Counted from the first letter of the stretch, positions 18,155 to 34,244 are shown. The stretch: 64,000 nucleotides of DNA from Dongiaceae bacterium (GCA_040878185.1 JBBDMS010000021.1:52667-116666), one strand, 5' to 3'. Translations and numbers: made by a program. Notes: generated by a model from the letters alone, not told the origin.

Positions 18155-19933
18155 ATGACCGATCGAGACAAAATGAGCAATTCCGCGGAGAATCTCGAAT
18201 ACGGACCGAAATATTTCGGTGCCTTGCGCATCTTCGCGACGACTCCGCCACTCCGTCAGGTCACGGTGCTGGTCTGCCTTATCGCCGCGACCTTCGCGGA
18301 AGGATTTGGCATGGCCGCCATTCTGCCGCTGCTGTCGATCGCACAGGGCAACGCGGGCGGCGATTCGGCGCTGAACCAGTTGATCACCGGCCTGATCCAT
18401 TTCATGGGACTGCCGCTCGACCTCGGTGTGGTCGCCTGTCTCATGGTCGCCGGATTCGTGGTCAAGGCCGCGCTGACGATGTTCGCGATGGGTCATGTCG
18501 GATACACGGTGACCAAGGTGACGACGGGGCTGCGGCTCAAGCTGATCGGGCGTCTGCTCGAAGCGAAATGGAGCTATTTCGCGCATCAGCCGGTCGGCCG
18601 GTTCGGCAATGCGATCAGCGGCGAAGCGGCGCGCGCGGGCGACGCGTATCTCGCGGTCGCAACGCTGATCGCCCTCACCTTCCAGACCATCATGTATCTG
18701 ATCCTTGCCTATCTGATGTCGTGGAAGCTCGCGCTTGCCGCAATCGCCCTTGGCGCGGTCATCGTCGTATCGCTCAACTGGCTGATCCGGGTGACAAAGC
18801 GCGCCGGCCGGACCCAGACCGCGCGCACCCGAAGCCTGACCGCGGGCCTGACCGACGCGCTGATCGGATTGAAACCGCTCAAGGCGATGGCACGCAACCT
18901 GCGATTCACCACGTTGTTCGACCGCGACGTGAAGGAGCTGAAGCGAGCTCTGCGCCGTCAGGTGCTGGCACGGAACGCAACCCGCTCCATGCAGGAAGTG
19001 ATGATCGTCGTGGCGATCGCGGTCGGATTTTATGGCGCCGTCGAAGTCGCGCATTACCCGGTCGATCAGGTCATCGTCATCGCGCTGCTTCTCATCAAGA
19101 CCGTGCTCACCTTGGCGCAGTCCCAGCGCACCCTGCAATCGGTCAATCAATGCGAGAGCGCCTACTGGTCGCTGCACGAGACGATCAAGGAAGCGGAAGC
19201 CGCCAAGGAGATATTCGTCGGCACCCGTGAACCGACTCTCGAACGCAACATCGAGTTTCACAATGTTGCGTTCTCGTTCGGGACCAAGGATGTGTTGCGC
19301 GGCGTGTCGCTCGAGATTCCCGCAGGCCAGGTGACGACGGTGACCGGCGGTTCCGGTGCCGGCAAAACAACGACCGCCGATCTCGTGCTCGGCCTCTATA
19401 TGCCCAAATCCGGCGATATTACCGTCGACGGCGTGTCGCTCCGCAACATCGATCTCCATAAATGGCGGGCGATGACCGGCTATGTGCCGCAGGAAGTGAT
19501 CCTCTTTCACGACACGATTTACGCCAACATCGCGCTCGGCGATCCGGCCTTCGACCCCGAGACGGTGCGCAATGCACTGGAAGCGGCCGGCGCATGGGAG
19601 TTCGTCACGGAATTGCCCGATCGGATGGACAGCGTCGTCGGCGAGCGCGGTACGCTCCTCTCGGGCGGCCAGCGCCAGCGCATTGCGGTCGCCCGTGCGA
19701 TCGTGCATCGACCCAAGCTGGTCATCCTCGACGAGGCGACGAGTGCACTCGATCCCGAAACCGAGTTCGCGATCTGCAGCAATCTGAAGTCGCTATCGCG
19801 CCGCACGGGCCTCACCATTCTGGCGATCACGCATCAGCCGGCCTGGGTCGAGGCGGCGGACCGGCTCTATCGCATCGCCGACGGACGGGTCATCGAGCCC
19901 ACGCCGCAGAGCGCGGCGATGGCGGCTTCCTGA
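18155..19933 (+). CDS. ABC exporter, fused TMD-NBD (MsbA/lipid-flippase-like half transporter)
   Basis: Six-helix N-terminal domain. Walker A GGSGAGKTT, signature LSGGQRQRIAVARA, Walker B LVILDEATSALD. Confidence 0.85.
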   Translation: MTDRDKMSNSAENLEYGPKYFGALRIFATTPPLRQVTVLVCLIAATFAEGFGMAAILPLLSIAQGNAGGDSALNQLITGLIHFMGLPLDLGVVACLMVAGFVVKAALTMFAMGHVGYTVTKVTTGLRLKLIGRLLEAKWSYFAHQPVGRFGNAISGEAARAGDAYLAVATLIALTFQTIMYLILAYLMSWKLALAAIALGAVIVVSLNWLIRVTKRAGRTQTARTRSLTAGLTDALIGLKPLKAMARNLRFTTLFDRDVKELKRALRRQVLARNATRSMQEVMIVVAIAVGFYGAVEVAHYPVDQVIVIALLLIKTVLTLAQSQRTLQSVNQCESAYWSLHETIKEAEAAKEIFVGTREPTLERNIEFHNVAFSFGTKDVLRGVSLEIPAGQVTTVTGGSGAGKTTTADLVLGLYMPKSGDITVDGVSLRNIDLHKWRAMTGYVPQEVILFHDTIYANIALGDPAFDPETVRNALEAAGAWEFVTELPDRMDSVVGERGTLLSGGQRQRIAVARAIVHRPKLVILDEATSALDPETEFAICSNLKSLSRRTGLTILAITHQPAWVEAADRLYRIADGRVIEPTPQSAAMAAS

Positions 19934-20009
19934 GCCTCGCCTTGTCCCTCGGGAACTCATTTGCTATGAGGCGGCCCGCCTTCTTCCCCCTCATGGACCC
20001 CTGCCTGGC

Positions 20010-21779
20010 ATGACGGAACCGAAACCGACTCCGACAACCCGCGCCCGTTTGCCATACCGGTGTGCCAATTTCGCGACGCTCGCCGAGGGGCTCGACTACG
20101 CCGCGCAGGGCCAATGCGGATTCAATTTCTATTCGGCACGCGGGCAATTGCTGAGCGCGCTGCCTTATGCCGAGCTGCGCGACCGTGCGATAGCGCTCGC
20201 GCGCGGGCTGATCGCGGCGGGGCTCAATCGCGGCGACCGTGTGCTGATGATCGCCGACACCGACCCCGATTTTATGATCGCGTTCTTCGCCTGCCAGTAT
20301 GCGGGCCTGTTGCCGGCATCGGCCGCGATCCCGACCAGCCTCGGCGGTCGCGAGGCCTATATCGCCTCGCTGCGCCGGCTGCTGCAATCGACCGGCTCGC
20401 GGGCCGCGATGGCGCCCGACAGTCTGATCGAATATCTGCGCGAGGCCGCCGACGGTCTCGATCTGCCGCTGGTCGGCGGGCCGCAGGATTTCTACAACCT
20501 CGCCCCGCGCGACGCGGCGTTGCGAACCTGGCAGAAGGACGAGCGCTGCTATCTGCAGTTCTCGTCGGGCAGTACGCGCTTTCCCCTCGGGATCGACATT
20601 TCCCAGCGCGTGCTGATGGCGAATGCCTATGCGATCGCGACCTACGGGCTCGAGATCGGCGCCGAGGATCGCTGTACGAGCTGGCTGCCGCTGTATCACG
20701 ATATGGGACTGGTCGGTTTTGCGCTGGTGCCCATGCTGACACAGATGTCGGTCGACTACCTCGCTACGCGCGATTTCGCACGCCGGCCGCTGATGTGGCC
20801 GACGCTCATCACGATGAACGGCGGGACGCTCTCTTACAGCCCGAGCTTCGGCTACGACCTCGCCGCGCGGCGCCTCCATGACGGCAATCTGCGGGTCGAG
20901 GGTATCGATCTCAGCCGCTGGCGCGGTGCCGGGATCGGCGGCGACATGATCCAGCCGAAAGTGCTCGAACGCTTTGCCGATATTTTTGGTCCCTACGGCT
21001 TCCGCCGCGAGGCCTTCGTGCCGAGCTACGGCATGGCGGAAACCGCGCTTGCGATTTCGTTCGCGCCGCTCGACACCGGCGTCGAGATCGATCGCGTCGA
21101 CCGGCAGCGTCTTGCCGAGCGCGGCGAGGCGGTTACGGCACCGGCCGATGCCTCGAACGCGCGGGATTTCGTACTCTGCGGCAAGCCGCTCGGCGGCCAC
21201 AGGATCGAAGTGCGCGACGAGACCGGACGCGCCTTGCCTGAACGCAAGCTCGGCCGCGTGTTCGTCAGCGGCCCCAGCATCATGGTCGGTTATTTCGAGG
21301 AGCCCGAGGCGACGGCCGCGGTGCTGCAGCCCGATGGCTGGCTCGATACCGGCGATCTCGGATACCTGACCGGCGGCCAGATCGTGATCACCGGCCGCAG
21401 CAAGGATCTCATCATCATCAACGGTCGCAATATCTGGCCGCAGGATCTCGAATGGTCGGTCGAGGACGGGCTGGGCCTGCGCCGCGGCGATACGGCAGCG
21501 TTTGCGTTCGAGGGCGATGACGGCAGCGAGCGCGTGATGATGCTGGTGCAATGCCGCGTGCCCGACGACGAGCGCCGTCAGCAGCTTGCGCGCGACGTCG
21601 CCGCCATCCTGCAACGCAGCCACGCGGTCGAGGCGGGCGTTTCGCTGGTGCCGCCGCACGGACTGCCGCAGACCTCGTCGGGCAAACTGAGCCGCACCCG
21701 GGCCAAGGCGAACTGGCTGTCCGGCCTCTACCAGGCGGGCCCCGACGGGATGCGAAAGACCGCCTCCGGGGCAAGCTGA
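20010..21779 (+). CDS. fatty acyl-AMP ligase / acyl-ACP synthetase (sphingolipid-associated)
   Basis: Adenylate-forming motifs YLQFSSGSTRFP, GYGMAET-like SYGMAETAL, and TGDLGY...GRSKDLIIINGRN. Directly upstream of the SDR-ACP-Spt genes. Confidence 0.8.
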   Translation: MTEPKPTPTTRARLPYRCANFATLAEGLDYAAQGQCGFNFYSARGQLLSALPYAELRDRAIALARGLIAAGLNRGDRVLMIADTDPDFMIAFFACQYAGLLPASAAIPTSLGGREAYIASLRRLLQSTGSRAAMAPDSLIEYLREAADGLDLPLVGGPQDFYNLAPRDAALRTWQKDERCYLQFSSGSTRFPLGIDISQRVLMANAYAIATYGLEIGAEDRCTSWLPLYHDMGLVGFALVPMLTQMSVDYLATRDFARRPLMWPTLITMNGGTLSYSPSFGYDLAARRLHDGNLRVEGIDLSRWRGAGIGGDMIQPKVLERFADIFGPYGFRREAFVPSYGMAETALAISFAPLDTGVEIDRVDRQRLAERGEAVTAPADASNARDFVLCGKPLGGHRIEVRDETGRALPERKLGRVFVSGPSIMVGYFEEPEATAAVLQPDGWLDTGDLGYLTGGQIVITGRSKDLIIINGRNIWPQDLEWSVEDGLGLRRGDTAAFAFEGDDGSERVMMLVQCRVPDDERRQQLARDVAAILQRSHAVEAGVSLVPPHGLPQTSSGKLSRTRAKANWLSGLYQAGPDGMRKTASGAS

Positions 21780-21782
21780 TCC

Positions 21783-22733
21783 ATGGCCCGACTGGTCGCC
21801 GTAACGGGTGCGACCGGGTTTGTCGGCGGCCATGTCGCTCGTGCCTTCACCGATGCCGGCTGGCGTGTGCGTATTCTCGCGCGGCGCATTCCGCTCAGCC
21901 CGCAGCTCGCCGATCTGACCCCCGACCTCGTCCCCGGCTCGCTCGAAGACGAAGATGCGCTGCGGGCTCTGGTGCGCGGTGCCGATGCGATCGTCCACGC
22001 GGCGGGCTCGGTCAAGGCCCTCGATGCCGCCTCGTTCCATCGCGACAACGCGGACGGCACCGCGCGGATGGTTGCGGCGGCGCACGCTGCTGCGCCGGAA
22101 GCAAGATTCCTGCTGATCTCGTCGCTATCGGCGCGCGAACCGGCCTTGTCGCCCTATGCGGCGAGCAAGCGCGCGGGTGAACGGGCGCTCGAAACCGGCG
22201 GCGCCAGTCTCGACTGGACGATCCTGCGACCGCCCGTGGTGTACGGGCCGGGCGACCGGGAAATGCTGCCGTTCTTCCGCATGGCGGCCAACGGCATGTT
22301 GGCGGCACCGGACAATGGCGCCGCCCGTCTTTCGCTCATCCATGCCGCCGATCTGGCACGAGCCTGCGTCGCGATCGTCGAGCGCCGCGAGTGGCGGCAC
22401 GCAACGATCGAGATCGACGATGGCCATCCCCGCGGCTATGGCTGGCCGGACATTGCGGACGCTCTCGCCGCCGCTGTCGGCCGGCCGGTTCGGCTGCGGC
22501 GGTTACCGCGCTGGCTGTTCGACGCGGTCGCCACCGTGAGCGCCGGCTGGGCCGAAATGACAAAATTGCCGGCCATGGTGACGCCCGGCAAGGTTCGCGA
22601 GCTGTTTCATCCGGACTGGATTTCCCGCGTGCCCGAATTTCCGCAAAATCTGGGCTGGTTGCCGCAATTCACTGTTAACAAAGGTTTTTCTGTGACGGCG
22701 GCGGCGTATCGCGGGCTCGGTCTGCTGCGATGA
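21783..22733 (+). CDS. NAD-dependent epimerase/dehydratase-family SDR (ceramide reductase CerR candidate)
   Basis: VTGATGFVGGHV Rossmann motif. Its position between the acyl-ACP ligase and ACP/Spt matches the Caulobacter ceramide locus (from memory). Confidence 0.7.
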   Translation: MARLVAVTGATGFVGGHVARAFTDAGWRVRILARRIPLSPQLADLTPDLVPGSLEDEDALRALVRGADAIVHAAGSVKALDAASFHRDNADGTARMVAAAHAAAPEARFLLISSLSAREPALSPYAASKRAGERALETGGASLDWTILRPPVVYGPGDREMLPFFRMAANGMLAAPDNGAARLSLIHAADLARACVAIVERREWRHATIEIDDGHPRGYGWPDIADALAAAVGRPVRLRRLPRWLFDAVATVSAGWAEMTKLPAMVTPGKVRELFHPDWISRVPEFPQNLGWLPQFTVNKGFSVTAAAYRGLGLLR

Positions 22734-22739
22734 ATCGAG

Positions 22740-22769
22740 TTGTAACAAAGGGTTACAATTCTTTATTTC
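22740..22769 (+). promoter_or_regulatory. perfect 7-bp inverted repeat TTGTAAC-N5-GTTACAA followed by a T-rich run, in an AT-rich island upstream of the ACP gene
   Basis: Read directly: ttgtaacaaagggttacaa ttctttatttc. Lies 7 nt after the SDR stop (22733). Either an operator or a weak intrinsic attenuator. Confidence 0.4.
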
Positions 22770-22869
22770 ACTAAACCCCTGACCTAATTGGAATCTACGG
22801 CTGTCCAGGCCACGACGCGCGTCGCGGTATTTGGATTCGTGGAGCGATCGAGTCGAGGCAGCGTTGAGA

Positions 22870-23121
22870 ATGGAAGTGGCCGAGTCTGGAACGTTCGAGC
22901 GGGTCGTGGAAGTTTTGCGACCGTTCCGGAAGAACGAGACCCCGATCGGACGGGGCAGCGATCTGGCCGACGATCTTCGCCTCGACTCGCTGGCGGTGAT
23001 GGACCTGATGATGGAACTCGAGGAACGGTTCGACATCACCATCCCATTGAATGCCGTTCCGGAAATCCGGACGGTCGGCGATCTGGCCGATTTCGTCGCA
23101 AAGCAGAAGGCAGAGGGATAA
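22870..23121 (+). CDS. acyl carrier protein (dedicated, sphingolipid-associated)
   Basis: Phosphopantetheine site DDLRLDSLAVMDLMMELEE. ATG at 22870 gives an 83-aa protein; the track's TTG at 22831 is probably too long. Confidence 0.85.
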   Translation: MEVAESGTFERVVEVLRPFRKNETPIGRGSDLADDLRLDSLAVMDLMMELEERFDITIPLNAVPEIRTVGDLADFVAKQKAEG

Positions 23122-23125
23122 GACG

Positions 23126-24343
23126 ATGGGTTTGTTCGACCGGTTCAAGGGCCTGAAGGCCGCCCATAGCGCCGCAAAGTCCTGCGGCGACGATCCATTT
23201 GCCATTCGCATGGACGAAGTGCTCTCGCCGACCGAAGCGATGATCGAAGGCCGGCACACCATCCTCGCCGGCACCAACAATTACCTCGGCCTCACCTTCG
23301 AGCCGTCCTGCGTCGCCGCCTCGGCCGAGGCGGTGCGCACGCACGGCACCGGCACCACCGGTTCGCGCGTCGCCAACGGCTCCTATGCCGGGCACAAGGC
23401 GCTTGAGGATTCGATTGCCGATTTCTTCGGTCGCAAGCACGCCATGGTTTTCACCACGGGCTACCAGGCCAATCTCGGCATCATCGCCACATTGGCCGGC
23501 CCACAGGACTATCTGATCATCGATTCCGACTCGCATGCGAGCATCTACGATGCGACGCGGCTGAGCAGCGCCACCGTTCTGCGCTTCAAGCATAACGATC
23601 CGGACGATCTCGACCGCCGCCTCTCGAAGCTCGGCAACGAGGCGGTCAACAAAGTGATCGTCGTCGAGGGTATCTACAGCATGCGCGGCGATATCGCGCC
23701 GCTGGCCGAGTTCGCGGCGGTGAAGCGCAAGCATGGCGCCTATCTCGTCGTCGACGAGGCGCATTCGATGGGCGTCATGGGCGATACCGGTCGCGGTGCG
23801 GCAGAGTTCTACGGCGTCGAGGCCGATGTCGATTTCATCGTCGGCACGTTCTCTAAGAGCCTGGGCGCGATCGGCGGCTATTGCGTCTCCGATCATCCGG
23901 AGTTCGATATCCTGCGCGTCGCCTGCCGGCCCTACATGTTCACGGCCTCGCTGCCGCCGTCGATCGTGGCCTCGGTCGCGGCCTCGCTCGAAGTGATGAA
24001 GGAGCGGCCGACATTGCGCGACAATCTCTGGGCCAATGTGAACCAGCTTTACGGCACGCTGCAGCGGCGTGGGTTCGTGCTCGGGCCGCACAAGAGCCCC
24101 GTCGTGGCGGTGCATCTGCCCGATCCGGCCAGTGCGATCCAGGTCTGGCACGAGCTGCTGCTGGCCGGCGTCTATGTGAACCTGACATTGCCGCCGGCGA
24201 CGCCGAACAATATAGCGCTGCTTCGCTGTAGCGTCTGTGCGGCGCATACGAGCGAGCAGCTTGCCGTCGTTGCGGACCGTCTGACCGAGATCGCCGAACG
24301 GCATGGCGTGATCGGCAGCATGCGCATGGCCGCCGCCGGCTGA
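23126..24343 (+). CDS. spt: serine palmitoyltransferase (alpha-oxoamine synthase family, PLP-dependent)
   Basis: AOS-family motifs: GTGTTGSRVANG, DSDSHASI, VDEAHSMG, PLP-lysine GTFSKSLG. ATG at 23126 lies 4 nt after the ACP stop, preceded by GAGGGA. Confidence 0.85.
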   Translation: MGLFDRFKGLKAAHSAAKSCGDDPFAIRMDEVLSPTEAMIEGRHTILAGTNNYLGLTFEPSCVAASAEAVRTHGTGTTGSRVANGSYAGHKALEDSIADFFGRKHAMVFTTGYQANLGIIATLAGPQDYLIIDSDSHASIYDATRLSSATVLRFKHNDPDDLDRRLSKLGNEAVNKVIVVEGIYSMRGDIAPLAEFAAVKRKHGAYLVVDEAHSMGVMGDTGRGAAEFYGVEADVDFIVGTFSKSLGAIGGYCVSDHPEFDILRVACRPYMFTASLPPSIVASVAASLEVMKERPTLRDNLWANVNQLYGTLQRRGFVLGPHKSPVVAVHLPDPASAIQVWHELLLAGVYVNLTLPPATPNNIALLRCSVCAAHTSEQLAVVADRLTEIAERHGVIGSMRMAAAG

Positions 24344-24372
24344 CGGCACGCTCACCACTGTTCGATAAGCAG

Positions 24373-24420
24373 ACGGCCGCCTCCGGGCGGCCGTTTCGCG
24401 TTCCGCCCGCGTCGGAACGC
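24373..24420. terminator. two tandem GC-rich hairpins between convergent genes (spt and the Tam41-like gene)
   Basis: ACGGCCGCC-tccg-GGCGGCCGT followed by TTT (24373-24396), and GCGTTCCG-N7-CGGAACGC (24398-24420). Confidence 0.55.
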
Positions 24421-24425
24421 CGTGG

Positions 24426-25382
24426 TCAGCGGAAGGCGCCGGCGCGGTAGAAGCGCCACAGCAATATCGGCGCCGCGAGGATCGGGTGGCGTCGCTCCCA
24501 GGGGCTCACCGGCGGCCGCACGGCGGCATGGCGCTCGACCTTCCAGAGCGCGTAATCGACCGCGCCGTCGACCGTAAAGACCGCCTTGATGAGACGCAGC
24601 AGGTTCAGGCTCTTGCCCGCGACACGCCGGCGGATCCACGCGCGACGGCCGGCTTTGCGCGCCGATGCATCGAGCGGATTGCGATAGAATCCGACATCGT
24701 GGGCAAAGGCGGCGTCGCCTAACGTTGCCGCCGTCAGCGCCTCATAGCGGTCGCGATCCGCCGCGACGATCAGGATGGCACGATCGCGGCCCCGTTCGCT
24801 GCGCAACTCGGCGCCATAGGTCGCGCGAAATCCCGTCTCCCACAGCCGTTCAGCGGTGAAGCGGTCGCCGACCAGTGGAAGGCTCGCCGCCACAAACGTT
24901 TCCACCGCATCGGCACAGGCGGCTTCGAACGCCCTTCCCACGGCCTCGTCCCGTGTGACAACAAGCCGTGCCGGCTGTGCGAACCGGGCCCAGAGCGCGC
25001 TGGTCTTGCTTCGCGGCCCGCATCCGCGCGCGAACTGCGCCAGCGAGATCACGGCATATTTGGCGCGCAGAGGCACGCCATTGATGATCGTTTCGACAAA
25101 GAACACGTTCGGCGGCAGAAGGCGATTGAAACGCGCGATCCAGGGTCGGTCGGGATAGGCGCTGCGGTAATCGTCCACCAGCAGATAGAAGTCGAGCAGG
25201 CTGTCGGGACTCGAGAGTGCTGCTTCGCCGCTGCGCAGGCAGGAGCCGTAGAACAGAACGGCCGCACTGCCGCTTCCATGTCGCTGCATCACCTGCGTCG
25301 CGAGGTCGCGCACCAATGCCGGAACCGGAAGCGCCAGTTCGTCGCGTACGATGGCCGAAACCTGCTGCATCGCCTGCTGCAT
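24426..25382 (-). CDS. Tam41/Mmp37-like nucleotidyltransferase-fold protein (putative lipid-phosphate cytidylyltransferase)
   Basis: NTase-like VLFYGSCLRSGE...DFYLLVDDY. RAKYAVISLAQF and LWARFAQPARLV resemble the Tam41 KYGV..(L) and LY.AGR..KPV segments. By-eye call that needs HMM confirmation. Confidence 0.45.
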   Translation of the reverse strand: MQQAMQQVSAIVRDELALPVPALVRDLATQVMQRHGSGSAAVLFYGSCLRSGEAALSSPDSLLDFYLLVDDYRSAYPDRPWIARFNRLLPPNVFFVETIINGVPLRAKYAVISLAQFARGCGPRSKTSALWARFAQPARLVVTRDEAVGRAFEAACADAVETFVAASLPLVGDRFTAERLWETGFRATYGAELRSERGRDRAILIVAADRDRYEALTAATLGDAAFAHDVGFYRNPLDASARKAGRRAWIRRRVAGKSLNLLRLIKAVFTVDGAVDYALWKVERHAAVRPPVSPWERRHPILAAPILLWRFYRAGAFR

Positions 25383-25405
25383 CGAAGGTCTTTCCGACGG
25401 GTCGG

Positions 25406-26365
25406 TCAGAGCCGCGCGAAGGTCAACGCATGCCCGCTTTCAACGATGATCGGCTCGCCCGGCACCGGATCGATCCGCTCACCGTCGAACAACAAAGGCG
25501 CGTCGGCCTCGATGGCGAGGCGAACGACGCGGCCGCTACGATAGCCTGCATCCTTCATCCAGTCGCGCGGCGTCCCGCGGATCAGCGGCAAAAGGGCCGA
25601 AAGGAAGCGGCGCGGCGGGCTCTGAACCCATGTCCATCGAATCGGCGCCTCGCCGGCGCCCCAGAACGGATCGGCCCCGAGAATGAGGCCCGGCAAGGTT
25701 GTCGCGAGAAAGAGATAGCACTCACCGCTGGCTATCTCCGCATTGTCACCGACCAACCGAATGCGTGTTCCCTGTTTTCGCCCGGCAAAAACGGTGTGCA
25801 CGATCAGCATGAACGCCGCCGCTGCAGCCGCGGTCGACTGGGCAAAACCGACCGGGTGAACGCGCCGGCGCGCCAGCTGCGTCGTATTGTAAAACGCAGC
25901 GCCGCCGAGCAGCAGACCGTACTGGATATCGGCATTCGCCCCGGCCCGAACCGACAGGACCGGATGCGTCAGCAGATCGAGCGGACGCCCTGCATCGCGC
26001 CGCTGCAACAGCGCCGTGAGCCCGAAATCGGGCTTGCCTGGAATACCGAGCCGATGACCGGTGACGTTCGTCATGCCGCCGGCCAGCACGGCGAGAGGCG
26101 GCGTGATGGCAAAGGGATTACGGCCGATCAGTGCCGTCATCGTTGCCTGCACGGTGCCATCGCCACCGGAAACCGCCAGCAAGGTCGCGCCAGCCGCGGC
26201 GAATTCGTCCAGCACCGCCGGAATGTCTCCAATATGCTCGATCTCGCGCGTCAGCACGCGCTGCGCCGGGCGATAGACCGCGCGCACGCGCTCGAGCCGC
26301 TCGCGGTTGCGCCGGCTGCGCGGGTTGACGATCAGCCCGATCGGACCGCTGAAGACGCCGTTCAT
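25406..26365 (-). CDS. diacylglycerol/sphingosine-kinase-family lipid kinase (ceramide kinase candidate)
   Basis: DAGK catalytic motif LLAVSGGDGTV and LAVLAGGMTN. ATG at 26365 forms an ATGA overlap with the upstream gene's stop. The 533-aa track ORF is an upstream over-extension. Confidence 0.75.
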   Translation of the reverse strand: MNGVFSGPIGLIVNPRSRRNRERLERVRAVYRPAQRVLTREIEHIGDIPAVLDEFAAAGATLLAVSGGDGTVQATMTALIGRNPFAITPPLAVLAGGMTNVTGHRLGIPGKPDFGLTALLQRRDAGRPLDLLTHPVLSVRAGANADIQYGLLLGGAAFYNTTQLARRRVHPVGFAQSTAAAAAAFMLIVHTVFAGRKQGTRIRLVGDNAEIASGECYLFLATTLPGLILGADPFWGAGEAPIRWTWVQSPPRRFLSALLPLIRGTPRDWMKDAGYRSGRVVRLAIEADAPLLFDGERIDPVPGEPIIVESGHALTFARL

Positions 26366-27522
26366 GCCGTCTCCGTCAGCCAGGATCGCAACGCGCCGTT
26401 GCGCCGCTTCGCGAGCACCGCCTGCCCGATCCGCACCAGATGGAACAGCAGCGAAAGGATCGTCCAAATCGCAACGGCGATGAATCCTTCCGCCGGCCGG
26501 TCGAACAGGATCGCGAGCGTCAGGATGGCGAGGTTGGGATTGCGCCGCGCGGTGATCGTGCGGAACCAGTAATCGACCGGCCGCCAGATATGAATTTCGA
26601 TACCGAAGCGCGCCATGAAGAATCCTTCTTCGGCGCGTCCGAGCACATAGCCGGCGACGATTACCCAGAGCGCGGGCAATAGCCATTCGCCCAGTTCGGG
26701 CGATACCGGCACAGTCGCCAGCCCGACATACCAGGCCCAGTACCAGAAAGGTGGATGGATAAGATCGATGCCATGATCGAACACCTCGCCCATTTTGGTC
26801 GAGGTGAGCGTAACGCGGGCGAGCTTGCCATCGACCGTGTCGAGGAACGTCATTCCCCAGGCGGCGACCAGACCGAGCGCGAACTGCCCGGTCCAGAACA
26901 GCCAGAATGCGGCGATCACCAGCAACAGGCTGACGAACGTCACCGCGTTGGGCGAAATGCCGAGCGCGCTGCACCAGCGCGTCACCTGGCGCGCCGGCCA
27001 AGGCCATAGATATTTGGTTACGAAATCGGTCGCGCCTTTGTACGCGCCCGAGAAACTCGCGCGTTCGAGAACGTCGCGCGGCGTGCCGTCGAGCGGCAGC
27101 AGATATGGCGTCGCGCGCTTGCGCAGGGTCGCATCGTAGGAGCCGGCCAGTTCCACCGGTCCAAGCCGTTCGAGCCCGGCCCCGCGCACGACCCCGTCCA
27201 GGTCGATCTCGCCGGAAGCACCAGCGGCGGCGGCTCCGGCCCTCACATGCGCGGCAACGAGTTTTGAACGGTCCGCCGGATCGACCAGCGCCCGGCCCGG
27301 TTGCCCGATCAGCGCCCGGATGATGGATTCGTCATAGAGATAGTCCGTGCGAAGCAGGAGCAGGCCGCCCGCCGACGCCGCGCCAACGGTCGAATCGATC
27401 CCCGCGCGCAGCAAGGCGCGGCGCAGCCGCTCGGCCCCGGTTAACCCCCAGAGCCGTCGTCCGGCGGAACCGAGCAACCGAACTGCGGGTTTATCCGCGT
27501 TGCGGGGGTGTGAATCTGTCAT
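26362..27522 (-). CDS. CDP-alcohol phosphatidyltransferase-family membrane protein with an N-terminal ~170-aa soluble extension
   Basis: Signature DTVDGKLARVTLTSTKMGEVFDHGIDLI (D-x2-DG-x2-AR-x8-G-x3-D-x3-D) and multiple TM helices. ATG at 27522, or TTG at 27540. Confidence 0.8.
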   Translation of the reverse strand: MTDSHPRNADKPAVRLLGSAGRRLWGLTGAERLRRALLRAGIDSTVGAASAGGLLLLRTDYLYDESIIRALIGQPGRALVDPADRSKLVAAHVRAGAAAAGASGEIDLDGVVRGAGLERLGPVELAGSYDATLRKRATPYLLPLDGTPRDVLERASFSGAYKGATDFVTKYLWPWPARQVTRWCSALGISPNAVTFVSLLLVIAAFWLFWTGQFALGLVAAWGMTFLDTVDGKLARVTLTSTKMGEVFDHGIDLIHPPFWYWAWYVGLATVPVSPELGEWLLPALWVIVAGYVLGRAEEGFFMARFGIEIHIWRPVDYWFRTITARRNPNLAILTLAILFDRPAEGFIAVAIWTILSLLFHLVRIGQAVLAKRRNGALRSWLTETA

Positions 27523-27595
27523 GAGAGAATCTGGCCGCAATCCGGGGATGAGTTTGAAGGCCGCATGGGCCGCCGCTTGACCGAACCGGCCGGCC

Positions 27596-28579
27596 TTGGG
27601 ACAAGACCAGCCGACCCGCTCTTATAACCGCCCACTGGACTCCCGCCAATTGTTCACCCTGGCCCATCTTTCCGATCCGCATTTGGCCGGCTGGCCCCTG
27701 CCCGGCCTGCGCGCGATCGCCAACAAGCGGGCCTTCGGCCTTCTGTCCTGGCAATTGCGCCGGCGGCGCATCCATCTGTCGAGCGTGCTCGCCGCTCTTT
27801 GCGCGGATCTTCGGAAGGCGGCCCCCGATCACACGGTCATTACCGGCGATATCGTCAATATCTCGCTGCCCGAAGAGTTCGCGCGCGCGACCCAATGGCT
27901 GGGCGCGTTCGGGACACCCGAGGCGTTGACGGTGATCCCGGGCAATCACGATGCGTATATCGACCTGCCCTGGGACGAGACGATCGGCCACTGGCGATGT
28001 TACATGCGCGACGAACCGGCAGCGAGCGCGATCGGGAAGCCGTTCGAGGGGCCCGACGACTTCCCGTTCGTGCGGCGTCGCGGCCGGATCGCTCTCGTGG
28101 GCACGTCGAGCGCCTGCGCGATGCCGATCGGCAGCGCGGCCGGCCGCCTCGGTGCCCCGCAGATCGAACGACTGCGCCATCGGCTCGACGAACTCGGCAA
28201 GGAAAATCTGTTCCGGGTCGTGCTGATCCATCATCCGCCGTTCGAGGATCGCCATCATCGCCGCAAGGAACTCGAAGATATCGTCGAGCTGCGCGCCGCG
28301 ATTGCCGCGAGCGGCGCCGAACTGGTCCTGCATGGGCACACACACCGTTCGAGCCTGAACCGCATCGCCGTGCCGGATGGCACGGCGCCCGTCATCGGCG
28401 TCGCTTCAGCATCGGCTCGTGCCTGGGCCAACAAGGATCCGGCGCGCTATCATCTTTACCGCATCGAACCCGCCGGCGATGGCTGGCGGGTGGAAGTTGA
28501 GGTCCGCACCGTCACCGTCACGCTCGATCGATTCGAACGGACCGGTGGTTTCCGACTGGATGTCCCGCTGGCCGCATAA
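27596..28579 (+). CDS. calcineurin-like metallophosphoesterase
   Basis: LSDPHL, ITGDIVN, GNHD, IHHPP, LHGHTHR motifs. TTG start (uncertain). Confidence 0.75.
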   Translation: MGQDQPTRSYNRPLDSRQLFTLAHLSDPHLAGWPLPGLRAIANKRAFGLLSWQLRRRRIHLSSVLAALCADLRKAAPDHTVITGDIVNISLPEEFARATQWLGAFGTPEALTVIPGNHDAYIDLPWDETIGHWRCYMRDEPAASAIGKPFEGPDDFPFVRRRGRIALVGTSSACAMPIGSAAGRLGAPQIERLRHRLDELGKENLFRVVLIHHPPFEDRHHRRKELEDIVELRAAIAASGAELVLHGHTHRSSLNRIAVPDGTAPVIGVASASARAWANKDPARYHLYRIEPAGDGWRVEVEVRTVTVTLDRFERTGGFRLDVPLAA

Positions 28580-28649
28580 AATCGGCAGGCCGGGCGGAAC
28601 GCGTCAACCTTCCGGCCCGTGCTAGGTTGCGGTCGAACCAAGGAATGAG

Positions 28650-29099
28650 ATGGCCGACGCCGGCATCAACGCGACCATGAAGACATTCGGCCATCCGGAT
28701 ACGGTTCTGGCCGAATATCCCCATTGGGTGGTCCTGCTTCGCCCGCAGCAGGCGACGCTTGGTGCACTGGTGCTCGCCGCGCGCGGCCCGGCGACGCGCT
28801 TTTCCGATCTCGACGCGGCCGCCATGGCGGGATTACACAATGCAATCGCCGACATCGAGCGGACGCTCATGTCCTTGTTCACCTACGACAAGATCAACTA
28901 TCTGATGCTGATGATGGTCGATCCGCATGTGCATATGCATGTGATTCCCCGCTATGCCGCGAAACGCGCGTTCGAAAGCGTCGAGTTTCTGGATCCGGGC
29001 TGGCCGCGCACGCCCGATCTCGCGCATGCGACCACTGTCGACGATGCGTTGCGGCAACGCCTGGCGACCATGCTGCGCGATGCATGGCCGCGGCGCTGA
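28650..29099 (+). CDS. HIT-family (histidine triad) nucleotide hydrolase/transferase
   Basis: Histidine triad DPHVHMHVIPR. AAGGAA RBS upstream of the ATG. Confidence 0.7.
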   Translation: MADAGINATMKTFGHPDTVLAEYPHWVVLLRPQQATLGALVLAARGPATRFSDLDAAAMAGLHNAIADIERTLMSLFTYDKINYLMLMMVDPHVHMHVIPRYAAKRAFESVEFLDPGWPRTPDLAHATTVDDALRQRLATMLRDAWPRR

Positions 29100-29105
29100 T
29101 CGACG

Positions 29106-30296
29106 ATGACCCTGCTCGATCGCTATATCCTCAGCCGCATCATGTGGCCGCTGTTCGGCACGGTGGCGATCGCGCTGATGGCGCTGCTGCTGGAGCGGAT
29201 GGTGCGGCTGCTCGACTTCGTCGTCGCAAAGGGCGGCCCGATCATCTTCGTGCTGCGGATGCTGGCCAATCTCATCCCGCATTATCTCGGCCTCGCACTG
29301 CCGCTCGCCTTCTTCATCGGCATCATTCTGGCGATCAGCCGCCTCAGCGCCGACAGCGAGATCGACGCGATGAACGCGACCGGCGTCTCGTTGCATCGGC
29401 TGGTGGCGCCGATCATGCTGGTCGCGATCATGCTGGTCGCCTGCGGCAGCATCATCTTCGGGTTCCTTCAACCCTATACCCGCTACGCCTATCGCGCGCT
29501 GGTCTATGTGGTGACCGAAACCGCGTGGGAATCGGCCCTCGAACGCGGCTCATTCTTCACCGGGTTCGGCAATTTCACGATCATGGCCAACGACATCGCG
29601 GATGGCGGCCGAGTGCTGAGTGGGATTTTCGTGCATGAGGAACGCCCGTCTGGCGGTTCGATCACGACGACCGCGGAGACGGGTCGCGTGTTTCGCTCGA
29701 CCGACGATCTTGCGTTGGTGCTCCGCCTCGAGAACGGGATTCGTGTCGATGCCGGTCTGATCGGCAGTGAGGCGACGGTTCTGTCCTTTGACTCACTCAC
29801 GCTGCCGCTTGACGATTCGCTCGGGCCGAGTCCGTTCCGCATGCGCGGCGATTCCGATCGCGAGATGACTATTCCCGAATTGTGGAACGCGATCGAGAAC
29901 CCGCCACCCGATATCGACAAAGTGCGCTTCGAGACGGAACTGCATGCCCGCGTCGTGCGAACCCTGTCGTTTATTTTCCTGCCGCTGCTGGCAGCCCCGC
30001 TGGCGATGACGACGCGGCGCAGCCGGCGCGGCGTCAGCCTCGGCAGCGGCATCGTCATATTGCTGATCTACCACTACCTGCTGCAGCTCGGCGAAGGGCT
30101 GAGCGATCAGGGCCGCCTCTCGCCCTGGATCGCGCTCTGGACGCCGTTCTTCGTTTTCCTGACTCTCAGCACTTGGTGTTTCTGGGTAACCAGCGTGCGG
30201 CCAGGTTCGAACCCGCTCAATTGGCTGCTCAGCGGCCTCGACGATGTTTACGGAAGCATCATCTCGTTCGGCCAACGCCGGCGGGAGGCGACATGA
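29106..30296 (+). CDS. lptF: LPS export ABC transporter permease LptF
   Basis: YjgP/YjgQ family: MTLLDRYILSRI..., six TM segments and a periplasmic beta-jellyroll region. Confidence 0.8.
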   Translation: MTLLDRYILSRIMWPLFGTVAIALMALLLERMVRLLDFVVAKGGPIIFVLRMLANLIPHYLGLALPLAFFIGIILAISRLSADSEIDAMNATGVSLHRLVAPIMLVAIMLVACGSIIFGFLQPYTRYAYRALVYVVTETAWESALERGSFFTGFGNFTIMANDIADGGRVLSGIFVHEERPSGGSITTTAETGRVFRSTDDLALVLRLENGIRVDAGLIGSEATVLSFDSLTLPLDDSLGPSPFRMRGDSDREMTIPELWNAIENPPPDIDKVRFETELHARVVRTLSFIFLPLLAAPLAMTTRRSRRGVSLGSGIVILLIYHYLLQLGEGLSDQGRLSPWIALWTPFFVFLTLSTWCFWVTSVRPGSNPLNWLLSGLDDVYGSIISFGQRRREAT

Positions 30297-31387
30297 CCTG
30301 GACGCTGACGCGCTACATATCGCGCCTCTTTCTCGGGAACCTGACCGCCATCGTGATCGGCTTTGCCGGGTTGCTGCAGCTGCTCGATCTGCTGAACAAC
30401 GCCGACCGGCTGTTCGCCCGGCACGGCGACAGCCTCTGGGTGCTCGCACGCTATGCGATGCTGCGCATGCCGGAAGTGTTCGGTTTCATACTGCCCTTCG
30501 CGACCCTGATCGCAACATTGCTGACGCTGGCACGCCTCGCGCAGAACAGCGAGATCCTCGCCGCCAAGGCGGCGGGACTTTCCTTTTACCGGATCCTGCT
30601 CTGCTTCCTGCCGGCGGCCGCTCTGGTGGCGGTGGTGAATTTCTACGTCGTCGATCGGGCGACGCCGCTCACCCAGCGCACGCTGATCGACTGGGATGCG
30701 GAAGCAGATTCTCTGTCCGACCAGCCGGCCGCGGACACCAGCGAAGGCGTATGGATCCGCGACGGGCTGTCGCTGGTTCGGGTTTCCCTGGTTCTCAATC
30801 AGGGCCGCGAGCTGCATGACGTCACGTTTTTCGTCCGCGACGAAGACGGCAATCTCGCCAAGCGCATCACCGCCGACGTCGCACTCTATCTCGAGAACGG
30901 CCGCTGGCAGCTCTACGACGTGGAAACACTGGTTATGGAGCGGCATGCCGGCGGCGAGTTCACGCGTCAGGCGACCGATGTGTGGGAGGGCACGCTGGTG
31001 CCCGGTCACTACGCCGATATCGTCGCCCCACCCACGAGCCTGACGCTGGATCAGCTTGAAGCCTTCACGCAAGCCGAAGGCGAAATCGGCAACCGGCCGG
31101 ACTATTACTATGAGACCTGGCTGCACAAGCGATACGCCGTGCCGGTCGCGGTGTTCATCATGGTGATCCTCGCAGCCCCCATGGCCCAGACGCTGCGGCG
31201 GAACCAGCGCATGGCGATGGGCCTCGCCGCCGGTGTCGGCATGGGGTTCCTCTATTTCGTCACCGACGGGGTGTGTCAGGCGCTTGGCGAGACGGGGGCC
31301 ATTCCGGCAGCCGTAGCGGCCTGGAGCCCGGGGCTCCTGTTTCTCAGCTTCGGGCTGGCGGGGTTGATCCGGATCGAAGGCTACTAG
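30293..31387 (+). CDS. lptG: LPS export ABC transporter permease LptG
   Basis: MTWTLTRYISRLFLGN.... ATGA overlap with the lptF stop. The track ORF from 29882 is over-extended. Confidence 0.8.
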   Translation: MTWTLTRYISRLFLGNLTAIVIGFAGLLQLLDLLNNADRLFARHGDSLWVLARYAMLRMPEVFGFILPFATLIATLLTLARLAQNSEILAAKAAGLSFYRILLCFLPAAALVAVVNFYVVDRATPLTQRTLIDWDAEADSLSDQPAADTSEGVWIRDGLSLVRVSLVLNQGRELHDVTFFVRDEDGNLAKRITADVALYLENGRWQLYDVETLVMERHAGGEFTRQATDVWEGTLVPGHYADIVAPPTSLTLDQLEAFTQAEGEIGNRPDYYYETWLHKRYAVPVAVFIMVILAAPMAQTLRRNQRMAMGLAAGVGMGFLYFVTDGVCQALGETGAIPAAVAAWSPGLLFLSFGLAGLIRIEGY

Positions 31388-31479
31388 CGGGCCGGTCGAA
31401 GGGCGAAAACCGCGACATTACAACGCGTTGTCGGTAGGGTGCCTTGCCGGAACCCCGGTCGAGAGCTAGATTGGGCGGC

Positions 31480-32259
31480 ATGAGCTTCTGGACTCGCACC
31501 CACAATCTTTCGCGCATGTCGCTCGGCGATCTGCTGCGCGTCTTCTTCACCTATCCGGCGGTCATCGCCTACCTGCTGTTCGGCATCGCCGCAGCAGCGG
31601 CCGCTGCCTATTTCTATCGGGCCGGCGACTGGCTCGGCGTCCTGGTCGCAATCGGCCTTGCGGTCGTCATCTATCCGCTGGTCTGGTACGTCCTGCATCG
31701 CTGGGTGCTGCACAGCCGCTATCTCTATCGTAGCCCGCTGACGGCCAAGACCTGGAAGCGTATCCATTTCGACCATCATCAGGATCCGTACGATCTACGC
31801 GTGCTGTTTGGCGCGCTGCATACAACGCTGCCGACGATCGCAATCGCAACGGCGCCGATCGGCTGGCTTGTCGGTGGCTGGAGCGGCGCCGCGGCCGCGC
31901 TGTCGACCGGATTGCTGACCACCTGCTTCTACGAGTTCTGCCATTGCGTGCAGCACCTCAATACGAAGCCCCGCACGACCTTCCTGCAGCACATCAAGCG
32001 CCTGCATCTCGCGCATCACTTCCACAACGAGCAGGGCAATTTCGGTATCACCAATTTCCTCTGGGACCGCTGGCTCGGCACTTTCTATGAATCGCCGCGC
32101 CAGGTGACGAAGAGCCCGACCGTGTTCAATCTCGGTTACACCGAGGAACAGGCCGCCATTTATCCGTGGGTGGCCGCACTCTCCGGCGGCACGCGCGGCG
32201 ACCAGAACCCGCGCCGCTTCCGTGTCGATCCCGACGTTCGGGGCGACCGTGCCGCCTGA
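31480..32259 (+). CDS. fatty acid hydroxylase superfamily (sterol desaturase-like) membrane di-iron enzyme; candidate sphingolipid/acyl hydroxylase
   Basis: His boxes HRWVLH, HFDHH, HLAHHFH. ATG at 31480. Confidence 0.7.
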   Translation: MSFWTRTHNLSRMSLGDLLRVFFTYPAVIAYLLFGIAAAAAAAYFYRAGDWLGVLVAIGLAVVIYPLVWYVLHRWVLHSRYLYRSPLTAKTWKRIHFDHHQDPYDLRVLFGALHTTLPTIAIATAPIGWLVGGWSGAAAALSTGLLTTCFYEFCHCVQHLNTKPRTTFLQHIKRLHLAHHFHNEQGNFGITNFLWDRWLGTFYESPRQVTKSPTVFNLGYTEEQAAIYPWVAALSGGTRGDQNPRRFRVDPDVRGDRAA

Positions 32260-32271
32260 GCGACACGCCGC

Positions 32272-33429
32272 TTGCCCACGTCTGCCGACATCCGCATCGT
32301 TCCGGCACAATCGAATCCGGCCCGTCGCGATTTCCTGAAACTGCCGCTGACGCTCTATGCCTGTGCTCCGGGCTATGCGCCCGGCCTGCTGATGGAGCGC
32401 AGGGCTGCGATCGACCCCGCCCGCAATCCCTTTTTCGAGCATGCCGAGGCGGCATTCTGGGTCGCCTATCGCGGCGACAAACCGGTCGGCCGCATCAGCG
32501 CGCAGGTCGATCGTCTCGCGCGCGAGCGATACGGCGCCGATCTCGGCCATTTCGGCTATCTCGATGCGATCGACGATCCGGCGGTGTTCGCGGCCTTGTT
32601 CGCAACGGCCGAGGATTGGCTGCGCGCGCGCGGCACGAAGCGCGTCCAGGGTCCGTTCAGCCTTTCTATCAATGAGGAAACCGGCCTGCTGGTCGACGGC
32701 TTCGATACCCGGCCGATGCTGATGATGAGCTATCACCCGTCGTTCGCGCGCGCCCATGTCGAAGCGAGGGGCTATGCCAAGGCGAAGGACGTCATCGCCT
32801 ATGACTATGACGTGACGCAGACGCTGCCGATCGACAGTATGCGTTTGATCGAGCGCGCGAAGGCCGATCTCGACATCCGGCTGCGGCCGCTCGACATGCG
32901 CCGCTATAACGAGGATCTGAGGATCATCCTCGACATCTTCAACGACGCGTGGGCGGACAATTGGGGCTTCATCCCGATGACCGAGGCGGAGGTCGCCCAC
33001 ACCGCGCACGAGATGCGGCAGATCATCGTGCCGGATCTGGTCTGGATCGCCGAAATCGACGGCGAACCGGTCAGCATGATCGTCTGCCTGCCCAACCTGC
33101 TCGAGGCGACGGCAGATCTCCGCGGCAGCCTGCTACCGTTCGGCTGGGCGAAACTGCTCTGGCGGCTCAAGGTCCGGGGGCTGCATACCGGGCGCGTGCC
33201 GCTGTTCGGCCTGCGCCGGCGCTATCACCGCTCGCCCTATGGCGCGGCCGTGATCTTCATGCTGCTCGATGCACTGCGACGAAGCGGCGTCGCACGCGGC
33301 ATCCGCAGCGCGGAGCTGTCCTGGATTCTCGAAGATAATTGGGCGATCCGATCGATCATCGAGCGTCTTGGCGGCCGACCGTACAAGACCTACCGCGTCT
33401 TTGAAAATACGCTCGCACCGCCATCATGA
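32272..33429 (+). CDS. large GNAT-fold N-acyltransferase (bacterial ceramide synthase bCerS candidate)
   Basis: TTG start. ~385 aa with tandem acyl-CoA N-acyltransferase-like halves (FWVAYRGDKPVGRISA..., LVWIAEIDGEPVSMIVCLPN...). Size and genomic context match the GNAT-type ceramide synthase of Caulobacter (from memory). Confidence 0.5.
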   Translation: MPTSADIRIVPAQSNPARRDFLKLPLTLYACAPGYAPGLLMERRAAIDPARNPFFEHAEAAFWVAYRGDKPVGRISAQVDRLARERYGADLGHFGYLDAIDDPAVFAALFATAEDWLRARGTKRVQGPFSLSINEETGLLVDGFDTRPMLMMSYHPSFARAHVEARGYAKAKDVIAYDYDVTQTLPIDSMRLIERAKADLDIRLRPLDMRRYNEDLRIILDIFNDAWADNWGFIPMTEAEVAHTAHEMRQIIVPDLVWIAEIDGEPVSMIVCLPNLLEATADLRGSLLPFGWAKLLWRLKVRGLHTGRVPLFGLRRRYHRSPYGAAVIFMLLDALRRSGVARGIRSAELSWILEDNWAIRSIIERLGGRPYKTYRVFENTLAPPS

Positions 33430-34223: not shown

Positions 34224-34244
34224 GTCGTCGCGAACGAGTCTCGG

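Follow-up and report, generated by a model that had tools for sequence, protein, structure and literature searches.

The closest described counterpart of the locus considered here is the sphingolipid cluster of Caulobacter crescentus, CC_1165-CC_1152, in which cpgA, cpgB and cpgC belong to a run of genes in the order CC_1159-1160-1161-1162 (Olea-Ozuna et al. 2024, PMC11324152). The anionic ceramide phosphoglycerates enable Caulobacter to live without lipopolysaccharide and serve as the polymyxin target there. The present analysis concerns a stretch of 64,000 nucleotides (further on, the window) from an uncultured Dongiaceae bacterium (GCA_040878185.1 JBBDMS010000021.1:52667-116666), where three tightly linked minus-strand genes at 24426-27540 converge on spt, the gene for serine palmitoyltransferase (SPT). 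Its subject is the kinship of these genes with cpgABC and the reaction catalyzed by the cpgC product, which may proceed through cytidine diphosphate (CDP)-ceramide.

In Caulobacter, CpgB is a demonstrated ceramide kinase of an “evolutionarily distinct” class. Deletion of cpgC leaves ceramide phosphate in the cell and abolishes both ceramide phosphoglycerate (CPG) and ceramide diphosphoglycerate (CPG2), whereas a cpgA deletion mutant still makes CPG and loses only CPG2; the same phenotype is caused by deletions of cpgD and CC_1153, and CC_1158 contributes to the CPG-to-CPG2 step. CpgD, whose reported fold class is that of CTP:phosphocholine cytidylyltransferase (CTP, cytidine triphosphate), has been shown to act as a CTP:phosphoglycerate cytidylyltransferase, and the CDP-glycerate that it makes is proposed to serve CpgA as donor, with CPG as the proposed acceptor. 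Zymomonas has no orthologue of CC_1159 (cpgA). The conversion of ceramide-1-phosphate to CPG is the sole reaction of the pathway without assigned chemistry: a Tam41/IPR015222 domain has been described in CC_1161 and a nucleoside diphosphate-activated ceramide proposed (Olea-Ozuna et al. 2024, PMC11324152), and a preprint of May 2026 still labels the CpgC mechanism as unidentified. Tam41 itself is reported to retain only one of the three canonical nucleotidyltransferase (NTase) carboxylates; it possesses a basic C-terminal membrane anchor and releases CDP-diacylglycerol (CDP-DAG), which is also the product of the Firmicutes Tam41.

The cpgABC operon and its convergence on spt

The trio of minus-strand open reading frames, seen both in the gene calls and in the sequence, and the adjoining elements are as follows.

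26362-27540, minus strand: very probable cpgA orthologue, with a TTG start at 27540 or an ATG at 27522 (PF01066, transferase signature, AlphaFold2 model, Foldseek)
25406-26365, minus strand: very probable cpgB orthologue (PF00781, SGGDGT, ATGA overlap with cpgA, adjacency to cpgC)
24426-25382, minus strand: very probable cpgC orthologue (AlphaFold2 model, Foldseek, PF09139 on orthologues, profile search against the PDB)
24344-24425, no strand: spacer between the spt and cpgC stops, with a 9-bp GC hairpin
23126-24343, plus strand: spt, serine palmitoyltransferase (NCBIfam NF047599, PDB 2x8u)

The 17-kb neighborhood of these genes (18155-34970) is colinear with Caulobacter CC_1165-CC_1152, the gene families and their order being shared. 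On the strength of this colinearity, the three genes are, with high probability, cpgA (CC_1159), cpgB (CC_1160) and cpgC (CC_1161) of an uncultured member of Rhodospirillales. The initial annotation had already likened the genes to the cpgABC operon, whose middle gene codes for a ceramide kinase, and this proved correct.

The genes are packed just as had been described from the sequence. The TGA stop of cpgA overlaps the ATG start of cpgB as ATGA (26362-26365), cpgB and cpgC are separated by exactly 23 nt (25383-25405) that include a GGAAAG ribosome-binding-like element before cpgC, and the cpgC stop lies 82 nt from the stop of the plus-strand spt, so that cpgC and spt are convergent. As for cpgA, the ATG at 27522 is likely to be its start rather than the TTG at 27540. 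As RNA, the spacer between spt and cpgC is predicted to fold with -43.3 kcal/mol (z -2.3), and its hairpin might possibly work as a bidirectional terminator; a simple terminator scan did not call it, and a consensus promoter and terminator scan of the locus was uninformative.

The spt product scores 653 bits with NCBIfam NF047599, an SPT equivalog, and matches SPT of Sphingomonas wittichii (PDB 2x8u) at E 2e-140. It exceeds the cut-off of the NCBIfam betaproteobacterial SPT model (653 vs 500 bits) and falls below that of the alphaproteobacterial one (497 vs 670), though the source is a metagenome-assembled genome of an alphaproteobacterium from Dongiaceae.

CpgC and its kinship with Tam41

CpgC is a remote Tam41-fold NTase with an active site that looks intact. 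The motifs quoted in the initial annotation are all present in the three proteins: the transferase signature in CpgA, SGGDGT in CpgB, and GS...D.YLLVDD, KYAVIS and LWARFAQPARLV in CpgC, which also carries FYGSCLR...DSLLDFYLLVDD. The AlphaFold2 model of CpgC, built with 36 homologues, has a predicted local distance difference test score (pLDDT) of 91.9 and a predicted template modeling (TM) score of 0.89, and it comprises an NTase domain and a second helical/winged-helix domain in the Tam41 topology, as judged by Foldseek. When the model was compared with the PDB, the top five matches were all Tam41, from Schizosaccharomyces pombe (6ig2, 6ig4) and Firmicutes (7ecd), with E 1e-8 to 4e-7 and TM 0.48-0.59 over 280-306 columns; the next family, ANT(4') nucleotidyltransferases, was about four orders of magnitude weaker.

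Profile searches lead to the same family. With close CpgC homologues alone in the profile (A1), the PDB search missed Tam41, and a profile extended with divergent orthologues (A3) gave S. pombe Tam41 as its best match in the whole PDB (E 0.0037). These orthologues come from syntenic cpgB-cpgC loci and are 39-47% identical to window CpgC. The alignment of A3 to 6ig2 pairs the following motifs of CpgC and S. pombe Tam41.

FYGSC.R...D.Y..VDD in CpgC with GYGSGVFR...IDFIFQVED in Tam41 (N-terminal; taken by itself, this part of the alignment does not reach significance)
KYAV in CpgC with KYGV in Tam41
LWARFAQP in CpgC with YLAGRFQKP in Tam41
SYRAELR..E in CpgC with SYLGDIR..AE in Tam41

The motif residues paired in this way are invariant columns of the CpgC family, in which G46, S47, R50, D64, K108, R133, Q136, P137, Y189, E192, R194 and E196 do not vary. 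D64 is the single invariant Asp and lies on strand 2, as in Tam41. The last 80 residues are strongly basic, with a net charge of +14, and include a predicted, strongly amphipathic helix (252-269, hydrophobic moment 0.53); in this, the predicted C-terminus resembles the Tam41 membrane anchor. This structural and profile support for the kinship, together with the aligned invariant residues, is new here.

Sequence-to-family searches draw a narrower picture. Window CpgC, which has more than 5,000 homologues and the same sequence as a hypothetical protein from a metagenome-assembled genome of Dongiaceae, gave no match in direct Pfam or NCBIfam scans, with PF09139 silent even at E 10, and phmmer found no match for it in the PDB; most of its close homologues likewise score nothing on PF09139. 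Seven of ten divergent orthologues do match this model, three of them (39.0, 27.3 and 26.7 bits) above its gathering score of 24 bits. Since the window protein is silent on PF09139 and only three of the ten orthologues pass the threshold, the CpgC family is a remote branch of Tam41 and not a Pfam-recognized member. The Tam41 likeness claimed earlier for the cpgC product holds by Foldseek, by Pfam on orthologues and by the profile search against the PDB.

The genomic setting of the family is informative as well. When genomes were scanned with the CpgC profile, 583 loci were returned, and the neighborhood counts given below refer to the best 80 of these, none of which is from Caulobacterales; denominators are the loci with enough flanking sequence. 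Represented among them are Dongiaceae and other Rhodospirillales, Gammaproteobacteria, Desulfobacterales, Syntrophobacterales, Nitrospirales and others. The CpgC family is, on this evidence, distributed well beyond Caulobacterales and Sphingomonadales. In 67 of 73 loci, the gene immediately upstream of cpgC is cpgB; the order cpgA-cpgB-cpgC is kept in 50 of 71, and a convergent spt lies no more than 3 kb from cpgC in 47 of 72. The operon linkage is not due to chance. At the same time, 12 related loci contain the cpgBC pair but lack cpgA within 10 kb. The wide distribution of the family, the close coupling of cpgB to cpgC and the fact that this pair does not depend on cpgA are new observations.

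A different arrangement exists in five gammaproteobacterial loci (L038, L041 and L054, around position 10000 in each, L048 and L051), where bCerS and cpgC are followed by a fatty-acid desaturase gene, and cpgB and cpgA are absent within 10 kb. Downstream of cpgC in the gammaproteobacterial loci lacking an adjacent kinase, only genes for a fatty-acid desaturase, a cupin, a HAD hydrolase and an M19 dipeptidase were found, and the kinase must be encoded elsewhere in the genome or be of another type.

The Tam41 fold and motifs, the synthesis of CDP-DAG by Firmicutes Tam41 and the UniRef name “phosphatidate cytidylyltransferase” given to a CpgC homologue from Dongia soli might be taken to mean that cpgC encodes an ordinary bacterial CDP-DAG synthase serving glycerophospholipids and that its adjacency to spt is incidental. 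Such a reading is very improbable. The gene adjoins the ceramide kinase gene in the 67 of 73 loci mentioned above, inside sphingolipid clusters across phyla; its deletion in Caulobacter affects sphingolipids specifically and leaves ceramide phosphate in place; and the family possesses a highly conserved C-terminal module of its own that does not align to Tam41. A housekeeping CDP-DAG synthase was, therefore, rejected on genomic context and the Caulobacter phenotype.

From ceramide to the phosphoglycerate head groups: a proposed pathway

CpgB contains SGGDGT, with the GGDG nucleotide-binding loop, and matches PF00781 (DAGK_cat; E 5e-14, 52.3 bits at a cut-off of 23.6), in keeping with its earlier assignment to the DAGK-family kinases. 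It is only remotely similar to the DgkB/YegS/BmrU structures of the PDB (E ~2e-4) and stays far under the cut-offs of all NCBIfam lipid-kinase equivalogs; the latter result fits the “evolutionarily distinct” class established for Caulobacter CpgB. By analogy of position, we infer that window CpgB is a ceramide kinase.

CpgA had been described as a CDP-alcohol phosphotransferase with the full signature and a soluble N-terminal domain, and the data bear this out. The protein matches PF01066 (E 4e-10, 40.6 bits, cut-off 22), and its signature D228-x2-D231-G232-x2-A235-R236-x8-G245-x3-D249-x3-D253 is invariant in 37 homologues. The AlphaFold2 model (pLDDT 89) consists of a soluble N-terminal domain (residues ~13-160) and a helical membrane domain (~174-375). 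Its top Foldseek matches are AF2299 (4q7c, 4o6n; TM 0.66-0.77 over ~370 columns), followed by IPCT-DIPPS (4mnd), and the likeness extends over the whole protein, the soluble domain included; the near-misses in NCBIfam are inositol-phosphate enzymes. The N-terminal domain (27040-27522, minus strand) has invariant residues of its own, W25, R32, R35 and R39. In the alignment consensus, read by eye, it appears to lack the usual nucleoside triphosphate (NTP)-transferase signature G-x-G-x-R-L...K and is, therefore, probably not catalytic; its role may lie in docking or regulation.

The best explanation of the locus as a whole, comprising cpgABC orthology and a pathway run by CpgB, CpgC and CpgA, is a probable one. 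CpgB would turn ceramide into ceramide-1-phosphate, as shown in Caulobacter. CpgC, a putative peripheral-membrane Tam41-fold enzyme, would then transfer cytidine monophosphate (CMP) from CTP onto ceramide-1-phosphate to give CDP-ceramide and pyrophosphate, from which a glycerate hydroxyl would displace CMP to yield CPG. Finally, CpgA, as an AF2299/DIPPS-like enzyme, would add the second phosphoglycerate from CDP-glycerate, as suggested by the published genetics and the CpgD biochemistry. The formation of CDP-ceramide by CpgC is suggested by the fold, the conservation of motifs, the near-obligate pairing with the kinase and the deletion phenotype, and this step has about an even chance of being right. 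Somewhat more tentative is the fuller proposal that CpgC is a CTP:ceramide-1-phosphate cytidylyltransferase, that the head groups are built via CDP-ceramide, and that, as no separate CMP-displacing transferase is conserved near cpgBC, both half-reactions may even be catalyzed by CpgC.

The initial annotation had proposed a linear, self-contained three-step operon, in which ceramide-1-phosphate comes from CpgB, CDP-ceramide comes from CpgC, and CpgA swaps CMP for an alcohol. This scheme has its attractions, as the three genes show tight translational coupling and are co-linear in 50 of 71 loci, the fold relatives of CpgA include phosphatidylinositol-phosphate synthases that use a lipid CDP donor, and no other transferase candidate is conserved nearby. 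Nevertheless, it is contradicted by the Caulobacter cpgA deletion, which spares CPG, by the 12 cpgBC loci without cpgA, and by Zymomonas. The common phenotype of the cpgD and CC_1153 deletions places CpgA in a soluble CDP-glycerate branch, and AF2299/DIPPS, which it matches best in structure, is part of the branch whose CDP-alcohol donors are soluble. The linear scheme is, thus, judged unlikely; because CPG persists in the cpgA deletion and CpgD makes CDP-glycerate, CpgA does not appear to be the partner that resolves CDP-ceramide made by CpgC. The alternative offered along with the linear scheme, in which CpgA draws on a soluble CDP-alcohol from the cytidylyltransferases at 33426-34970, comes closer to the current model in that CpgD makes CDP-glycerate, but departs from it in the acceptor, which is proposed to be CPG and not ceramide.

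In the preferred pathway, CMP might be displaced by CpgC itself, by a housekeeping transferase or by something redundant with CpgA; these options follow from the lack of a conserved candidate gene in the 80 neighborhoods. The first of them can be carried further, to a bifunctional CpgC or a phosphotransferase with an NTase fold that activates ceramide-1-phosphate and passes it on to glycerate; free CDP-ceramide would then never build up, and there would be no CPG synthase apart from CpgC. Such enzymes have relatives in style, since LicD, FKTN and FKRP are NTase-fold proteins using CDP-alcohols as phospho-alcohol donors; cpgBC pairs do occur without cpgA, the genetics requires only cpgB and cpgC for CPG, and no further transferase is conserved around them. 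On the other hand, the Tam41 family offers no precedent, Tam41 releasing CDP-DAG as a product, and no glycerate site is identifiable in the CpgC sequence. On balance, this version is of low probability.

Several points weigh against the pathway preferred here. Clustering of all unassigned open reading frames in the 80 neighborhoods revealed no conserved CMP-displacing transferase, i.e., no “missing CPG synthase”: the conserved ones were only Dongia-specific genes, AcpR, a DinB-like gene and a desaturase gene. With no conserved neighbor fit for CMP displacement, the scheme has a missing enzyme at its first head-group step. The window CpgC is silent on PF09139, as said above, and the choice between CTP and another NTP is not readable from its sequence. 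The term CDP-ceramide was found in no paper of the literature searched, which, with the wording of the May 2026 preprint, agrees with the earlier statement that this intermediate had not been demonstrated. In addition, orthology to CCNA_01217-01219 rests on synteny and domain content and not on direct alignment, and the head group of this organism is not fixed by the sequence.

The last point leaves some room for a different ceramide-phospho-X, e.g., phosphoglycerol or phosphoinositol in place of phosphoglycerate. Head-group identity cannot be read from the sequences, the NCBIfam near-misses of CpgA are inositol-phosphate enzymes, and other bacterial sphingolipids bear phosphoglycerol or phosphoethanolamine. 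However, all the genes tied genetically to CPG2 in Caulobacter (CC_1152, 1153, 1158, 1159, 1160 and 1161) have positional equivalents here, and a different head group has only a small probability.

The surrounding cluster and its likeness to known systems

The window cpgABC genes lie inside a complete cluster for sphingolipid synthesis and export. Pfam scans of the neighbors gave the plus-strand order MsbA-like ABC exporter, AasR, CerR, AcpR and Spt on one side and, beyond cpgA, metallophosphoesterase, HIT, LptF-like and LptG-like proteins, fatty-acid hydroxylase, bCerS-like protein and MobA/CofC-like NTase, followed by a minus-strand NTP_transferase. The aasR, cerR and acpR genes are the ceramide-synthesis genes upstream of spt; the aasR-cerR pair was identified by Pfam AMP-binding/Epimerase matches, and the order of the three genes is that of CC_1165-CC_1163.

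20010-21779, plus strand: aasR
21783-22733, plus strand: cerR
22831-23121, plus strand: acpR, an acyl carrier protein with the DSL motif
27596-28579, plus strand: metallophosphoesterase, positional equivalent of CC_1158 (PF00149, E 2e-11)
28650-29099, plus strand: HIT protein, in the block positionally equivalent to CC_1157-CC_1155 (Pfam)
29106-30296, plus strand: LptF-like permease, in the same block (Pfam)
ending at 31387, plus strand: LptG-like permease, in the same block (Pfam)
32272-33429, plus strand: bCerS-like N-acyltransferase, positional equivalent of CC_1154 (weak GNAT match)
33426-34223, plus strand: MobA/CofC-like NTase, positional equivalent of CC_1153 (PF12804, E 2e-15)
34245-34970, minus strand: NTP_transferase-family cytidylyltransferase, cpgD orthologue by position (PF00483, E 1e-12)

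The metallophosphoesterase gene is divergent from cpgA across a 73-bp gap, and the best PDB sequence match of its product is the glycerophosphodiesterase GpdQ (2zo9). A metallophosphoesterase accompanies cpgA in all 44 loci having it and occurs in four of 12 loci without it, which fits a contribution of CC_1158 to the CPG-to-CPG2 step; phylogenetically, such counts are not independent of each other. The PDB matches of window CpgD include CTP:phosphocholine cytidylyltransferase (1jyk), and the cpgD product is the likely source of CDP-glycerate; the co-occurrence of cpgA and cpgD in the neighborhoods is not significant (p ~0.3) and was not used as evidence. The gene for the CC_1153-like NTase overlaps the end of the bCerS gene by 4 nt. 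CofC relatives activate 2-phospholactate, phosphoenolpyruvate or 3-phosphoglycerate with guanosine triphosphate, and, by analogy, this NTase might make a second activated glycerate. The bCerS-like protein is conserved in 47 related loci at 43-58% identity.

Some components lie outside the shared set. A fatty-acid hydroxylase gene (PF04116; 31444-32259, plus strand) is located between the genes for the LptG-like and bCerS-like proteins; it is present in 31 of the 80 related loci and lies outside the Caulobacter CC_1152-1168 cluster as described. Its product probably hydroxylates the acyl chain or the long-chain base of the sphingolipid. Directly upstream of aasR, the window has a gene for an MsbA-like ABC exporter (18155-19933, plus strand), a candidate sphingolipid flippase, at the place of the Wzx-like flippase CC_1166 of Caulobacter; the same adjacency to aasR is found in the loci L001, L009, L019 and L078. 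Dongia genomes have two more conserved genes, for proteins of ~665 and ~226 residues, in 15-17 loci (e.g., L004, L006, L010, L022, L027, L036, at ~16-19 kb), which are absent from the window; in loci whose sequence covers both flanking genes, their place is between those for AasR and the ABC transporter.

If CDP-ceramide is indeed formed, it would be a liponucleotide never yet observed, a sphingolipid counterpart of CDP-DAG made by a Tam41-fold and not a CdsA-type enzyme, which would be a notable result. The family keeps the Tam41 fold and motifs across phyla and is nearly always paired with a ceramide kinase, often without cpgA; in this way, the published hypothesis is sharpened to a defined reaction, ceramide-1-phosphate + CTP -> pyrophosphate + CDP-ceramide. 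The question was already posed by Caulobacter; the window extends the system to Dongiaceae and many uncultured lineages and provides well-predicted orthologues usable for biochemistry.

The proposed pathway resembles the route of CdsA and CDP-alcohol phosphotransferases to the head groups of glycerophospholipids in its succession of a phosphorylated lipid, its activation with CMP and the displacement of CMP by an alcohol. It differs in that activation would be due to an enzyme of the Tam41 fold in place of CdsA, and in that the operon's transferase seems to use a soluble donor and to add the second head group. With Tam41/Mmp37 (PF09139; 6ig2, 6ig4, 7ecd), CpgC shares the overall fold over ~280-306 columns, the conserved GS...D, KY(G/A), (G/A)RF(Q/A)(K/Q)P and SY..(D/E).R..AE, and, by prediction, a basic amphipathic C-terminal region. 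Identity to Tam41 is ~15%. Unlike Tam41, window CpgC is below Pfam detection, ends in a W/R/H-rich C-terminus that is invariant among members and does not align to Tam41, and, judged by its genetic context, would act on ceramide-1-phosphate instead of phosphatidate. CpgA, in turn, is built like AF2299 and IPCT-DIPPS of Archaeoglobus (4q7c, 4o6n, 4mnd), with a soluble cytidylyltransferase-like N-terminal domain, a membrane CDP-OH_P_transf domain and the full signature (TM up to 0.77), but is only ~16% identical to them, has an N-terminal domain apparently without the usual NTP-transferase signature, and is proposed to use CDP-glycerate and a ceramide lipid.

The system closest to the window remains that of Caulobacter crescentus, i.e., cpgABC (CCNA_01217-01219/CC_1159-1161) and cpgD (CCNA_01210). 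The window differs from it by the MsbA-like exporter gene upstream of aasR in place of the Wzx-like CC_1166, by the hydroxylase gene inserted before bCerS, and by CC_1167/CC_1168, equivalents of which were not found in the stretch examined. Common to both are the gene order and the convergence on spt; the PF01066 transferase with an N-terminal cytoplasmic domain, the LCB5/DAGK-type kinase and the Tam41/IPR015222-like protein; and the surrounding genes for transport and ceramide synthesis, with cpgD, the CC_1153-like NTase and the CC_1158-like phosphoesterase. The cpgABC genes of the window are, thus, a further case of a known system, and the idea of CDP-ceramide re-derives the hypothesis already published for it.

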